A stretch of 23,165 nt of DNA from a virus (IMGVR_UViG_2585427789_000019), one strand, 5' to 3'; positions 1,294 to 6,477 are shown, numbered from the stretch's first letter. Notes: generated by a model not told the origin, from the sequence alone. Translations and numbers: made by a program.

Positions 1294-1379
1294 CTTAAAT
1301 GTCCTTTTACTGCGAAAATGGACATTAGTATCGGAAACAGGAAAGGGAGGCGAAAGACGGTTTAAATGATGCGCTTACC

Positions 1380-2251
1380 ATCTTCCTGACCGCAGGCGTT
1401 GATGTTCCATCTGCTCGCTTAGCCGCCTTGGTATGTACAAACACCCATTTGTGATGCTTGCCTATTTGATCACGCAACACTTTACAGGCGGTATCGTTCA
1501 GCGCCACACCAATGGCGCGGTTTGATTTGCTCTCTTCTGGATTCACCCAGGCAACTCGTCGCTGCATGTCGATTTGTTGCCATTCCAGATTTATGATGTT
1601 CGACTTTCTCAGACCAGTTGCCAGCGCAAACTTGACGACAGATTTCAGTGGTTCGGGGCACTCATCAATAAGGCGTTTTGCTTCCTCCTTTTCCAGCCAT
1701 CTGACTCGCTTGTTTCTGACCGCTGGTATCTTGATGACAGGCGCTTTTTCCAGCCACTTCCAGTCGCGTTCTGCAGCACGGAGAATGGCCTTTCTCATGG
1801 CAAGATGCTTTGCCTTTGTCTGAGTTGGTACTGGCTTTGGTTCATAAACAGGCAGTTCTTTACCTTTCCTGATGGCGGCCTGAACTTTCTGTTTCCATAT
1901 TTCTTTCGTCTTTCTGTTATGCATTCTGCTTACAGCAGAGTAAATCTTTGCCTCCGAGATATCTTTAAGCCTTATACCCTCAAAATGTTCAAGCCAGAAC
2001 TCAATCCGGCTTTTATCTGAATCGAGAGATTTTTTATCAGCTTTTTCCTCAAGCCATCTTAGGCAGGCCTCTTCAAAAGTGACATCAGGTAAATCCCCTA
2101 GCTTTTCTACTCGCCAGAGTTCTGCTTTTCGCTTGTCGTGCAACTCCTGAGCTTGCCGCTTGTCCTTTGTGCCAAGAGATTCCTTAATTCGTTTCCCGCC
2201 CGGGAGCGAATACGAGGCATACCATATTTCATTTCTGCGGAAGAGTGACAT
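1380..2251 (-). pseudogene. intD: Lambdoid prophage tyrosine integrase, 3' end truncated by IS66-family insertion
   Basis: N-terminal about 290 codons read as a phage integrase ([46 protein letters not shown]...) including the box I arginine region ([18 protein letters not shown]). The C-terminal catalytic box II (H-x-x-R ... Y) is absent; beyond about codon 291 the frame reads IS-derived sequence. Confidence 0.8.
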
Positions 2252-2478
2252 TTTCTTTCCTCTGTTATGCCATCACCCGCGCTCACCTGGACAGTATGCA
2301 GCGGAGACTGAAGCGCCGCAATGCAGGCTTGCCGTGTTGTGAGGTAAGGAGATTTTGGCTTGGTTGGATCTTTACGTGTTGCCTGTAGGCGGCCTGTTCG
2401 TATCCAGTTGGTGGCGGTTGGTCTGGATATCTTAAGAAACTGACAGGCCTCATCGAGTGTGAGGCTGTATGATTCCAT
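2107..2478 (-). CDS. xis: Excisionase (AlpA/Xis-type HTH), 3' end overlapping the integrase start
   Basis: ATG at 2478 with upstream aggtaa; [57 protein letters not shown]... contains an excisionase-type HTH. The 123-codon length and long overlap with int are unusual, so the 3' end is uncertain. Confidence 0.55.
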
Positions 2479-2728
2479 GGTTACCTCTGCTTTTTGAACG
2501 CATGTCACGTAACTTCTTAATGTGTTCTGCCGTTTCGATCTCTTCTGCTATCCGATCTGCATCAGCTTTATTCACAGGTTCAAAGTCATGATTAAAGCGG
2601 AACATGCTGGCGATACATGTTCTGCCTTTTCGGATGTAGTGAACTTTGTTGTGGGTAGAACGCAGGATTTTGCAGGGAGTGCCGTGGTGGTCGACGTACC
2701 AGGTGTTAGGCAAAATGATTCTGAACAT
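2450..2728 (-). CDS. Hypothetical prophage early-left protein (92 aa)
   Basis: ATG at 2728 preceded by a GAGGTG Shine-Dalgarno; same orientation as the xis/int operon; no family recognised. Confidence 0.5.
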   Translation of the reverse strand: MFRIILPNTWYVDHHGTPCKILRSTHNKVHYIRKGRTCIASMFRFNHDFEPVNKADADRIAEEIETAEHIKKLRDMRSKSRGNHGIIQPHTR

Positions 2729-2775
2729 TTTTACACCTCAGTTGGACGATGTTGAAATTTGCTGCTTTGAGGCCA

Positions 2776-2994
2776 TCACAATCCCCATTGTTTGTTCTTA
2801 AGTTCGATCTCCTCCTGGCAGCTTGCACAAGTCCGACAACCCTGAACGGCCAGGCGTCTTCGTTCATCTATGGGATCGCCACACTCACAACAATGAGTGG
2901 CAGATATAACCTGGTGGTTCAGACGACGCATTTTTATTGCTGTATTGCGCTGTAATTCTTCGATTTCTGATGCTGAATCAATGATGTCTGCCAT
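2776..2994 (-). CDS. TraR/DksA-family C4 zinc-finger protein (72 aa)
   Basis: MADIIDSASEIEELQRNTAIKMRRLNHQVISATHCCECGDPIDERRRLAVQGCRTCASCQEEIE... has paired CxxC motifs and an acidic N-terminal helix as in phage TraR-like proteins. Confidence 0.6.
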   Translation of the reverse strand: MADIIDSASEIEELQRNTAIKMRRLNHQVISATHCCECGDPIDERRRLAVQGCRTCASCQEEIELKNKQWGL

Positions 2995-3043
2995 CTTCCA
3001 TTAATCCCTGAATTGTTGGTTAATACGCTTGAGGGTGAATGCG

Positions 3044-3070
3044 AATAATAAAAAAGGAGCCTGTAGCTCC
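3044..3070 (-). terminator. Candidate intrinsic terminator inside the early-left operon
   Basis: On the minus strand, stem ggagc/gctcc (3056..3070, loop ctgta) is followed by a U-run (complement of aataataaaaaa at 3044..3055), between the 71-aa ORF and the TraR-like gene. Confidence 0.4.
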
Positions 3071-3092
3071 CTGATGATTTTGCTTTTCATGT

Positions 3093-3308
3093 TCATCGCT
3101 CCTTAAAGACGCCGTTTAACATGCCGATCGCCAGGCTTAAATGAGTCGGTGTGAATCCCATCAGCGTTACCGTTTCGCGGTGCTTCTTCAGTACGCTACG
3201 GCAAATGTCATCGACGTTTTTATCCGGAAACTGCTGTCTGGCTTTTTTGATTTCAGAATTAGCCTGACGGGCTATGCTGCGAAGGGCGTTTTCCTGCTGA
3301 GGTGTCAT
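3093..3308 (-). CDS. Hypothetical protein (71 aa from ATG at 3308; the six-frame track extends it to a TTG at 3407)
   Basis: MTPQQENALRSIARQANSEIKKARQQFPDKNVDDICRSVLKKHRETVTLMGFTPTHLSLAIGMLNGVFKER; its ATG overlaps the stop of the upstream 27-codon ORF (ATGA). Confidence 0.45.
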   Translation of the reverse strand: MTPQQENALRSIARQANSEIKKARQQFPDKNVDDICRSVLKKHRETVTLMGFTPTHLSLAIGMLNGVFKER

Positions 3309-3388
3309 TGAACAAGTCCCATGTCGGCAAGCATAAGCACACAGAATATGAAGCCCGCTGCCAGAAAAATGCATTCCGTGGTTGTCAT
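3305..3388 (-). CDS. Candidate small hydrophobic peptide (27 aa), coupled between the methyltransferase remnant and the 71-aa ORF
   Basis: Minus strand atgacaaccacggaatgcatttttctggcagcgggcttcatattctgtgtgcttatgcttgccgacatgggacttgttcaatga translates to MTTTECIFLAAGFIFCVLMLADMGLVQ; ATGA overlaps at both ends. No Shine-Dalgarno of its own, so this is speculative. Confidence 0.3.
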   Translation of the reverse strand: MTTTECIFLAAGFIFCVLMLADMGLVQ

Positions 3389-3750
3389 GCAGCCTCCCGA
3401 CGGGCAAGAATCCTTGAGCCGAACGCCATCAACTCTCCACGATCAACGGTCGTAAAGTGGCAGTGTGTACGGGGGTATGGGTGCCAGATAATGAGCATCG
3501 AGCCTTTATTATTTCCACTGACGTGTTTCCCGGTGAGTGGGTTAATAAATGCCAGTCGTCCTGCCGTGATGAATCTGACCTCACTGGCGGTTTGTATCGC
3601 TTCATGAAACCATCCGACAGATGTGTCAGCAGGTAATAACATTACACATCCCACACTGCTGAATTTGTTTTCAGTGGCTGCCTTTTTCACAAAAGGGGAA
3701 ATATTGCTGTATGGTGGATTCAACCAGACATAACCAGAGGCATATCCCAT
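3385..3750 (-). CDS. Phage Dam-type N6-adenine DNA methyltransferase, N-terminally truncated remnant
   Basis: WLNPPYS (N6-adenine MTase motif IV) lies at residues 9 to 15, followed by VMLLPADTSVGWFHEAI and VRFITAGRLAFINP as in the phage Dam family; the expected N-terminal SAM-binding region is missing and there is no Shine-Dalgarno before the ATG at 3750. Confidence 0.55.
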   Translation of the reverse strand: MGYASGYVWLNPPYSNISPFVKKAATENKFSSVGCVMLLPADTSVGWFHEAIQTASEVRFITAGRLAFINPLTGKHVSGNNKGSMLIIWHPYPRTHCHFTTVDRGELMAFGSRILARREAA

Positions 3751-3997
3751 TGCTTACTGGTTGGTTACCAACTTGTACCAGAACATGCGGGCCAATGCGC
3801 TGACTGACGCGGAATTACGGCGCAAGGCTGCCGATGAACTGTCCTGTATGACCGCGCGAATTAACCGTGGTGAGGCGATACCTGAACCAGTAAAACAACT
3901 TCCTGTCATGGGCGGTAGACCTCTAAATCGTGCACAGGCTCTGGCGAAGATCGCAGAAATCAAAGCTAAGTTCGGACTGAAAGGATCAAGTGTATGA
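3751..3997 (+). pseudogene. peaD: Replication protein P, C-terminal fragment
   Basis: Frame reads ...LVTNLYQNMRANALTDAELRRKAADELSCMTARINRGEAIPEPVKQLPVMGGRPLNRAQALAKIAEIKAKFGLKGSSV, matching the C-terminus of lambda P as I recall it; no N-terminal part and no ATG start; stop overlaps the ren ATG as in lambda. Confidence 0.75.
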
Positions 3998-4296
3998 CGG
4001 GCAAAGAGGCAATTATTCATTACCTGGGGACGCATAAGAGCTTCTGTGCACAGGACGTTGCCGCGGTAACAGGTGCAACCGTAACCAGCATAAATCAGGC
4101 TGCGGCTAAAATGGCGCGGGCAGGAATCCTGGTCGTTGATGGTAAGGTCTGGCGAACGGTGTATTACCGGTTCGCTACCAGAGAAGAACGGGAAGGAAAG
4201 GTGAGCACGAATCTGATTTTTAAGGAGTGTCGCCAGAGTGCCGCGATGAAACGGGTACTGAGGGTATATAAAAGAACATCAATGGGAACACAATGA
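3994..4296 (+). CDS. renD: Ren-like protein
   Basis: MTGKEAIIHYLGTHKSFCAQDVAAVTGATVTSINQAAAKMARAGILVVDGKVWRTVYYRFATREEREGK... matches lambda Ren; ATG at 3994 overlaps the P stop (ATGA). Confidence 0.8.
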   Translation: MTGKEAIIHYLGTHKSFCAQDVAAVTGATVTSINQAAAKMARAGILVVDGKVWRTVYYRFATREEREGKVSTNLIFKECRQSAAMKRVLRVYKRTSMGTQ

Positions 4297-4363
4297 TGAA
4301 ACAGGTGAGTTGAGTTCAAACTGTAGTACAATTCTCTCCCGTTTGAACAGGAAAGAATATGCT

Positions 4364-4696
4364 ATGAACCCTTATATTTATCTTGGTGGTGCAATACTTG
4401 CAGAGGTCATTGGTACAACCTTAATGAAGTTTTCAGAAGGTTTTACACGGTTATGGCCATCTGTTGGTACAATTATTTGTTATTGTGCATCATTCTGGTT
4501 ATTAGCTCAGACGCTGGCTTATATTCCTACAGGGATTGCTTATGGTATCTGGTCAGGAGTCGGTATTGTCCTGATTAGCTTACTGTCATGGGGATTTTTC
4601 GGCCAACGGCTGGACCTGCCAGCCATTATAGGCATGATGTTGATTTGTGCCGGTGTGTTGGTTATTAATTTATTGTCACGAAGCACACCACATTAA
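4364..4696 (+). CDS. emrE: Small multidrug resistance (SMR) efflux transporter EmrE
   Basis: 110 aa from the ATG at 4364 (aggaaag Shine-Dalgarno upstream): MNPYIYLGGAILAEVIGTTLMKFSEGFTRLWPSVGTIICYCASFWLLAQTLAYIPTGIAYGIWSGVGIVLISLLSWGFFGQRLDLPAIIGMMLICAGVLVINLLSRSTPH, four TM helices including the conserved membrane Glu. Confidence 0.9.
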   Translation: MNPYIYLGGAILAEVIGTTLMKFSEGFTRLWPSVGTIICYCASFWLLAQTLAYIPTGIAYGIWSGVGIVLISLLSWGFFGQRLDLPAIIGMMLICAGVLVINLLSRSTPH

Positions 4697-4726
4697 AATA
4701 ATTTGTTTCTAAACGACTAAAATATG

Positions 4727-4950: not shown

Positions 4951-6477
4951 ATGAAAAAAGCCATAGCATATATGCGATTTTCATCACCAGGTCAGATGTC
5001 TGGCGACTCATTAAACCGACAGAGAAGACTTATTGCTGAATGATTAAAGGTAAATAGTGATTATTATCTTGATACCATAACATATGAAGATTTAGGATTA
5101 AGTGCATTCAAAGGAAAGCATGCACAATCAGGAGCTTTTTCGGAATTTTTAGATGCTATAGAGCATGGTTATATATTGCCAGGAACTACATTGTTAGTTG
5201 AAAGTCTGGACAGACTTTCAAGAGAAAAAGTCGGTGAAGCGATTGAACGTCTGAAATTGATTTTGAATCACAGTATTGATGTTATAACTCTTTGCGACAA
5301 TACAGTCTATAATATTGACTCTTTGAATGAGCCATATTCATTAATAAAAGCCATACTTATAGCACAAAGGGCAAATGAAGAAAGCGAGATAAAGTCAAGT
5401 CGGGTTAAATTATCATGGAAGAAAAAACGGCAGGATGCACTGGAATCAGGTACGATTATGACGGCGTCTTGTCCGAGATGGCTCTCCTTAGATGACAAAA
5501 GAACGGCTTTTGTTCCAGACCCCGACAGGGTGAAAACTATTGAGCTAATTTTTAAACTCAGGATGGAAAGGCGCTCATTGAATGCAATAGCCAAGTATTT
5601 AAATGATCATGCTGTAAAGAATTTCTCAGGAAAAGAAAGTGCATGGGGACCTTCTGTAATTGAAAAATTATTAGCGAATAAAGCTCTGATAGGTATATGC
5701 GTACCTTCATATCGTGCAAGAGGGAAAGGGATAAGTGAAATCGCTGGCTATTATCCCAGAGTCATATCAGATGATTTGTTTTACGCTGTACAGGAAATTC
5801 GGTTGGCACCTTTTGGTATTAGCAATAGTAGCAAGAATCCTATGCTAATAAATCTACTTCGAACAGTTATGAAGTGTGAGGCTTGTGGTAATACCATGAT
5901 TGTTCATGCGGTATCTGGAAGTTTGCATGGCTATTATGTTTGTCCGATGAGAAGATTACATCGATGTGACAGGCCATCAATAAAAAGAGATTTGGTTGAT
6001 TATAATATCATTAATGAATTGCTTTTTAATTGTAGCAAAATTCAACCAGTTGAAAACAAGAAAGATGCTAATGAAACTTTAGAGTTAAAAATTATTGAGC
6101 TTCAGATGAAAATTAATAATTTAATCGTTGCATTGTCTGTCGCGCCTGAAGTTACCGCTATAGCAGAGAAAATAAGACTATTAGATAAGGAATTACGAAG
6201 GGCTTCGGTATCATTGAAAACTTTGAAGAGTAAAGGTGTAAATTCATTCAGTGATTTTTATGCTATTGACTTAACCAGTAAAAATGGACGAGAGTTATGC
6301 CGTACACTTGCCTATAAAACATTCGAAAAAATCATAATTAATACGGATAATAAAACCTGTGATATCTATTTTATGAATGGCATTGTTTTTAAACACTATC
6401 CTTTAATGAAAGTAATATCCGCCCAGCAGGCGATAAGTGCTCTCAAATATATGGTTGATGGTGAGATTTATTTCTAA
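4951..6477 (+). pseudogene. ybcK: Serine recombinase YbcK-like, interrupted by an in-frame TGA at codon 31 (5041..5043)
   Basis: ATG at 4951 with aggtg Shine-Dalgarno gives MKKAIAYMRFSSPGQMSGDSLNRQRRLIAE, then TGA, then the same frame continues LKVNSDYYLDTITYEDLGLSAFKGKHAQSGAFSEFLDAIEHGYILPGTTLLVESLDRLSREK... to 6477 (508 codons if read through). The N-terminal piece carries the resolvase-type catalytic serine motif (YMRFSS..Q). Confidence 0.75.

Follow-up and report, generated by a model that had tools for sequence, protein, structure and literature searches.

Introduction

The exo-xis region of phage λ and of Shiga toxin (Stx) phages is an early, non-essential segment, transcribed from pL, that influences the lysis-lysogeny decision (PMC8614690, PMC6213356), and its published genes are orf60a, orf63, orf61, orf73 and ea22, plus two open reading frames (ORFs) of 7 and 31 amino acids (PMC8614690). 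The cryptic prophage DLP12 of Escherichia coli K-12 (intD-xisD-exoD-peaD-renD-emrE) represents a decayed arrangement in which the immunity region is deleted and P is cut to a C-terminal fragment. Among products of very small genes in E. coli, the small inner-membrane proteins and type I toxins (ShoB, DinQ, TisB, Ibs) are about 20–30 amino acids long and consist of one hydrophobic helix. We examined a stretch of viral DNA of 23,165 nucleotides (IMGVR_UViG_2585427789_000019; this whole stretch is called the window), in which part of an exo-xis block lies next to the scar of a large deletion, and asked if a 27-codon hydrophobic ORF within that block (MTTTECIFLAAGFIFCVLMLADMGLVQ; 3305..3388, minus strand) should be counted as a gene. 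The ORF is a credible, overlooked small gene of lambdoid phages, and the deletion junction beside it is known. As a whole, the locus is best explained, and we think likely, by the deletion-fused left arm of DLP12 carrying an exo-xis ORF chain that includes a real 27-codon gene.

A 27-codon ORF within the exo-xis block

The 27-codon ORF overlaps both neighbours by the four bases ATGA: at 3385-3388 its start codon overlaps the stop of a phage N6-adenine methyltransferase (Dam) remnant, and at 3305-3308 its stop codon overlaps the start of a 71-amino acid ORF, the homologue of λ orf61. These two links had been pointed out in a preliminary description of the DNA, and both stand; the chain is longer than was described there, a third ATGA at 3093-3096 joining the stop of the 71-codon frame to the start of a 31-codon ORF. 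The overlapping stops and starts, together with the lack of a Shine-Dalgarno sequence for orf61, give the chain the sequence features of a translationally coupled operon. The order of the chain is Dam or orf63, the 27-codon ORF, orf61 (71 amino acids), the 31-codon ORF and TraR/orf73, and positions 2799-3388 share 97% DNA identity with λ between ea22 and orf63 (about 30.4 kb to 31,008), so that both homology and the retained order of the last four genes identify the segment as the λ exo-xis block. The 27-codon ORF itself is 100% identical in λ (31008-30925, complement), where it lies beneath the N-terminus of annotated orf61 in another frame. The two loci differ in the gene upstream of the ORF, which is orf63 in λ whereas it is Dam in the window, and in orf61, which in λ is truncated by a 1-nt insertion whereas the window has the intact 71-amino acid form.

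Of 5,426 complete E. coli genomes, 3,142 (58%) carry the segment with the 27-codon ORF, in 4,256 copies altogether and always with at least 90% identity. The ORF is nonetheless unannotated in the λ reference, and both the RefSeq genomes and the manually curated record of phage 21 leave it out as a gap of 76 nt; a handful of automated GenBank annotations list it as a hypothetical protein. It does not appear in the published exo-xis gene list, the primary λ profiling being known to us through a review only. No family for the peptide was found in Pfam, NCBIfam or PHROGs; an exhaustive HMMER search of 1.84 billion representative proteins returned only matches that were at least 87% identical, and a distant DNA search of phages returned no relative of the ORF or of orf61 with less than 90% identity. 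Apparent diverged homologues of orf61, matching at about 51–52% identity, proved to be frameshift-ridden, low-quality contigs.

Substitution pattern of the 27-codon frame

We aligned 270 copies of the ORF drawn from viral contigs, genomes, metagenomes and phages. The frame was intact in 269 of them, the remaining one being cut short at its last codon, and an additional sequence had a 1-nt deletion; the concern raised in the preliminary description, that the frame might not be kept in related sequences, is thereby removed. At every locus with enough flanking sequence (208 of 208) an upstream stop codon overlapped the ATG of the ORF, being the stop of orf63 in 177 cases and that of the unrelated Dam gene in 31; the Dam arrangement is the one seen in PhiR30_1-type phages and in the window. 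Twenty distinct mutations were present at 17 sites, with 12 in third positions, all of them synonymous, and 8 non-synonymous; that many synonymous changes had a probability of P = 0.0035 in a simulation preserving the transition/transversion ratio. The common variants were all synonymous, and the replacements were rare and mostly conservative (T3A, F8L, V26I, A21V).

Read in the two other sense frames, the same segment gave synonymous/non-synonymous counts of 5/15 and 4/16, compared with 12/8 in frame. By the same method the counts for orf61 (71 amino acids) were 17/19 in frame and 7/26 and 6/29 in the other sense frames, those for TraR/orf73 were 27/25 in frame and 15/37 and 11/41 in the others, and those for the 31-codon ORF were 5/15 in frame and 4/15 and 5/14 in the others. 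The in-frame signal of the 27-codon ORF thus exceeded that of orf61 and of TraR, both of them accepted genes, and the 31-codon ORF showed none. The arrangement of the 27-codon ORF and this pattern of substitution suggest that it is probably a genuine gene for a micropeptide, with its translation coupled to that of the adjoining genes.

The 4/16 frame is that of an N-terminally extended orf61, and it brings in a competing explanation for the segment, according to which the 27-codon frame is no gene and 3305-3374 encodes the N-terminal 22 residues of a 93-amino acid Orf61 starting from an ATG at 3374. The 93-amino acid form is widely annotated and is assumed in the exo-xis literature, many database clusters have this length, PHROG 303 models Orf61 over positions 1-93, and Orf61 of phi24B has been modelled at 93 amino acids (PMC8614690). 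The extension frame, however, not only has 16 non-synonymous changes for 4 synonymous ones but carries radical replacements that are common among the copies (G>R in 51, H>Y in 13, T>A in 19). Moreover, the published Orf61 models disagree at residues 1-23 (PMC8614690), the start of the 71-amino acid form is the one used by RefSeq and by the curated phage 21 record, and the ATG at 3374 is without a usable Shine-Dalgarno sequence. We judge it quite improbable that the segment belongs to Orf61; the 93-amino acid structural models include 22 residues that the substitution pattern puts outside protein-level selection.

Putative coupling of the ORF and nature of its product

In the Dam version of the block the ATG of the 27-codon ORF is preceded, at a distance of 4 nt, by a Shine-Dalgarno-like GGGAGG (3393..3398, minus strand) inside the 3' end of Dam, and the start of orf61 has no usable Shine-Dalgarno sequence in the window. 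As is established for λ, the exo-xis early segment is transcribed from pL in intact phage. On such a transcript, ribosomes ending the upstream gene would restart on the 27-codon ORF, aided in the Dam version by GGGAGG, and ribosomes ending the 27-codon ORF would in turn resume at the start of orf61, where no good ribosome-binding site is available. With this order of events, translation of the 27-codon ORF would both make a membrane peptide and set the level of orf61 expression. In the window the chain is an orphan and is probably silent, because pL is deleted, the Dam remnant has no start codon, and a search of the minus strand from 2000 to 4700 gave no sigma-70-like promoter.

The same arrangement would suit an ORF translated solely as a ribosome relay from the upstream gene to orf61, with a peptide that has no function. 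This is consistent with the ATGA at both ends and the poor Shine-Dalgarno sequence of orf61, with the finding of no 27-amino acid homologue beyond this module, and with the behaviour of the neighbouring 31-codon ORF, which is reported to be translated in λ (PMC8614690) and yet shows no amino acid constraint. A pure relay should not show such constraint either, but the 27-codon frame does, with its 12/8 ratio and its rare conservative replacements, and the length of 27 amino acids and the hydrophobic character are invariant over the 270 copies. We therefore think it unlikely that the ORF is a relay and nothing else, and favour a peptide-encoding gene.

Some prophages have a different arrangement (L113, 1241-1993), in which orf63 or Dam, the 27-codon ORF and the initial codons of orf61 have given way to a 250-amino acid gene with no Pfam match. 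Orf61 behind this gene has another N-terminus (MTIEHNN...) and its own ribosome-binding site, a GAGG situated 6 nt upstream of the start.

The product of the ORF would be a single-helix hydrophobic micropeptide; its grand average of hydropathy (GRAVY) is 1.62 and its best 19-residue window scores 2.33. In its size and single hydrophobic helix it resembles ShoB, DinQ, TisB and Ibs. Unlike them, the ORF has no promoter of its own and no partner in the form of an antisense RNA, its product is devoid of basic residues, and it sits inside a coupled phage operon. No Rfam family was found in the window, and the RNA fold z-score was 0.01, indicating no stable structure, so that an explanation at the RNA level was rejected. 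With no minus-strand promoter-like site, no Rfam family and no unusual RNA structure, the locus does not qualify as a type I toxin-antitoxin system. A toxic or regulatory role, which the preliminary description mentions as frequent among small membrane peptides of phage early regions, would be conjecture for this one.

Weighing of the evidence

Several observations weigh against a real gene for a membrane peptide. All copies of the ORF are at least 90% identical in DNA and confined to lambdoid phages of E. coli, so that the test for selection rests on just 20 mutations among related sequences. The uninterrupted hydrophobic core, C6-A21, is 16 residues long, or 21 if D22-V26 is counted, and the peptide has no lysine or arginine and two acidic residues, so that it does not follow the positive-inside rule; its insertion into the membrane, as predicted from its composition, is plausible but not assured. 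Because orf61 occurs without the 27-codon ORF in the module with the 250-amino acid gene, the peptide is not indispensable to orf61. A literature search yielded no direct sign of its translation: the peptide string is absent from the full texts searched and from the supplements of two small-ORF surveys, and the review of λ profiling gives just the 7- and 31-amino acid ORFs as extra ORFs here (PMC8614690). Finally, the antisense frame that shares its wobble positions with the 27-codon frame scores 11/9.

This last score, and the small number of mutations, allow the synonymous excess to be ascribed to chance, or to selection acting on this antisense frame itself (plus strand, 3321..3455, MSASISTQNMKPAARK...), which is open in the Dam as well as the orf63 contexts. 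The antisense ATG, however, is lost in 13 copies, and the C-terminal half of the ORF is wholly different by context (44 amino acids with Dam, compared with 61 with orf63). The antisense ORF also opposes the direction of the operon, plus-strand promoter-like sites were no commoner than expected by chance, and the simulation gave the sense-frame result a probability of 0.0035. An origin of the excess in chance or in the antisense frame appears highly improbable, and selection on the 27-codon frame remains the preferred explanation.

orf61 and its published deletions

The orf61 homologue of the window (3093..3308, minus strand) is full-length at 71 amino acids, matches PHROG 303 with an E value of 4.7e-36, and has a poor Shine-Dalgarno sequence; this 71-amino acid form is the one present in most relatives. 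The orf61 of the λ reference (NC_001416, 30839-31024) departs from it at both ends, being truncated by the 1-nt insertion, which lies in an A-run, and over-extended at the N-terminus compared with the 71-amino acid gene. That λ Orf61 looks truncated has been remarked upon in a review (PMC8614690).

The published orf61 deletions replaced the entire annotated ORF (PMC6213356). They consequently removed the 27-codon frame as well, and their phenotypes are not assignable to one product. As both frames were removed, and as λ Orf61 is truncated, we tentatively raise the possibility that λ and most E. coli lambdoid prophages carry an unrecognised membrane micropeptide gene, and that its product, alone or with Orf61, perhaps causes the lysis-lysogeny and host-survival phenotypes of "orf61" deletions. 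Should the peptide prove genuine, the exo-xis gene map would gain one entry, and orf61 genetics would require frame-specific mutants.

NCBI labels many 71-amino acid Orf61 homologues "cell division protein ZapA", and no NCBIfam or Pfam model backs this label here. A scan of GTDB genomes mostly brought up λ DNA with the λ-specific orf61 frameshift, in assemblies that bear the names of Shewanella, Pseudomonas, Bradyrhizobium, Paenibacillus, Kitasatospora and other genera; the λ contigs in those assemblies are almost certainly laboratory contamination.

The deletion junction between Dam and P

Upstream of the 27-codon ORF lies the Dam remnant (3385..3755, minus strand), which comprises residues 64-185 of 185 and lacks its own start codon. 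The minus-strand ORF contained in it (3385..3750, 121 amino acids) matched positions 60-168 of the 169 in the Pfam Dam profile (PF05869) with an E value of 4.9e-35, and positions 63-165 of the 165 in NCBIfam TIGR01712 with 96.8 bits, just below the cut-off of 97.05; a whole-profile match at the curated score was obtained with neither model. NPPY, at residues 11-14 of this ORF, corresponds to residues 75-78 of full Dam and agrees with the catalytic (D/N)PPY motif. The preliminary description had recognised a Dam-type remnant by this motif and taken its N-terminus to be missing, and both points are borne out by the profile and alignment positions. By base-level alignment the ATG at 3750 is internal Met65 of the 185-amino acid Dam and not a start codon; the full-length homologues start 64 codons further upstream. 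Residues 1-63 are gone, and with them the N-terminal region presumed, from the order of motifs, to bind the methyl donor S-adenosylmethionine. A search by sequence found no solved structure for the Dam family, and cofactor binding by the lost third is for this reason a deduction.

We located the junction by aligning the window, base by base, with Dam and P of phage PhiR30_1, peaD of K-12, and P of λ. The Dam remnant is 98.9% identical in DNA to the intact 185-amino acid Dam of PhiR30_1, with identity extending to base 3755. Identity on the P side starts at 3754-3756, and from 3754/3755 on the DNA is 93–97% identical to P of λ and PhiR30_1 and to K-12 peaD. The junction therefore falls at 3754..3755, with 1–2 nt ("TT") common to both sides. 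The remnant of the replication gene P (3756..3997, plus strand) comprises approximately residues 154-233 of 233, is without a start codon, and, read on the plus strand from about 3752, matches Pfam Phage_lambda_P (PF06992) over positions 117-162 of 162, that is, not over its full length. The preliminary description had the Dam remnant end at 3750 and P homology begin at 3751; it was right that the two remnants abut, and the true junction is 3–5 nt further to the right and includes the "TT" microhomology.

RefSeq annotates both remnants in E. coli B REL606 as pseudogenes, namely 3385-3753, "DNA N-6-adenine-methyltransferase, missing N-terminus", and 3752-3997, "replication protein P, missing N-terminus", and the junction is accordingly both known and ordinary. 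The Dam and P remnants are both dead pseudogenes, and the scar between them only documents the decay of one lineage of a well-known cryptic prophage.

PhiR30_1, which shares the integrase and is 98.7% identical to window positions 2000-3755, provides an intact relative. Compared with it, the window lacks 7,424 bp, comprising the 5' end of Dam, orf60a, exo, bet, gam, kil, the immunity region (cI, cro), a cII-like gene, O, and codons 1 to about 153 of P. All of the missing genes are also retained in E. coli 720632, whose DLP12-type prophage at the same intD is nearly complete, so that the earlier proposal of a deletion of everything between the left operon and P is supported by two relatives that carry the missing stretch. 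The sharing of only "TT" between the Dam and P sides fits an illegitimate deletion with minimal microhomology. A single such event would have fused the leftward Dam gene at codon 64 to the rightward P gene near codon 154, and would have taken with it pL and pR (with the immunity region), O together with the origin, and two thirds of P, leaving two blocks of genes that now diverge from a promoterless point.

DLP12 setting of the window

E. coli B REL606, E. coli C, ATCC 8739 and some 60 further complete genomes carry positions 2700-4300 with 100% identity. The counterpart in REL606 adjoins tRNA-Arg (argU) and intD and continues into ren, emrE, ylcJ, ybcK, ybcL and ybcM, and with argU/intD on one side and the ren-emrE-ylcJ-ybcK-ybcL-ybcM series on the other, the window is the E. 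coli B/C form of the cryptic prophage DLP12. K-12 DLP12 shares with it the argU/intD site, the genes ren, emrE, ylcJ, ybcK, ybcL and ybcM downstream, the deletion of the immunity region and the reduction of P to a C-terminal fragment. It differs in having xis'/'orf60a-exo and exo'/'P junctions, a P remnant that is 68 nt longer, and an IS3 in ren, whereas the B/C form keeps DUF4222, TraR, the 31-codon ORF, orf61, the 27-codon ORF and Dam', with Dam joined straight to P. Because its breakpoints differ, K-12 DLP12 is without the 27-codon ORF. The Dam'/'P junction of the window was seen in 67 complete genomes, compared with 306 for the K-12 exo'/'P junction. No genome with a structure between the K-12 type and the B type of junction was found; the 306 genomes with exo'/'P do not outnumber the 315 in which the K-12 left junction is also present.

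Neighbouring genes and other observations

To the right of the junction, ren is intact (3994..4296, plus strand; RefSeq "protein ren"), and its start overlaps the stop of P by ATGA at 3994-3997.

To the left, the 31-codon ORF (3001..3096, minus strand), whose start overlaps the orf61 stop by ATGA, corresponds to λ 30715-30620. It is probably the 31-amino acid "orf2313" reported from ribosome profiling; that a 31-amino acid ORF in this λ block is translated is stated in a review citing the ribosome profiling of Liu et al. 2013 (PMC8614690). To judge from its substitution counts, the 31-codon ORF may be translated without constraint on the sequence of its peptide. A terminator-like hairpin followed by a T-run lies within it (3054-3072, minus strand); such sites were no commoner than in shuffled sequence. 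Identification of the hairpin (3072-3054) with λ tL3 was considered and dropped, a literature search having yielded nothing usable. Descriptions of pKD46 presumably place tL3 just downstream of exo.

The next gene (2776..2994, minus strand; 72 amino acids) encodes a TraR/DksA-type zinc-finger protein, matching Pfam PF01258, and is the homologue of λ orf73, with 97% DNA identity to λ; Orf73 is a TraR-type RNA-polymerase-binding protein (PMC9239242). A DUF4222 gene (2450..2728, minus strand; Pfam PF13973, RefSeq) is the last of the retained early-left block before xis/int.

At the left end of the window, intD (ORF at 1325..2251) is interrupted by IS679, an element of the IS66 family, of which TnpA, TnpB and part of the transposase occupy positions 1-1324. 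This arrangement of IS679 in intD was present in 2 of the 5,426 complete genomes, and FDAARGOS_1059 gave the best match for the left end of the window. Further to the right, the recombinase gene ybcK (4951..6477) has a nonsense change relative to REL606, TGG>TGA (W31*), at window positions 5041-5043.

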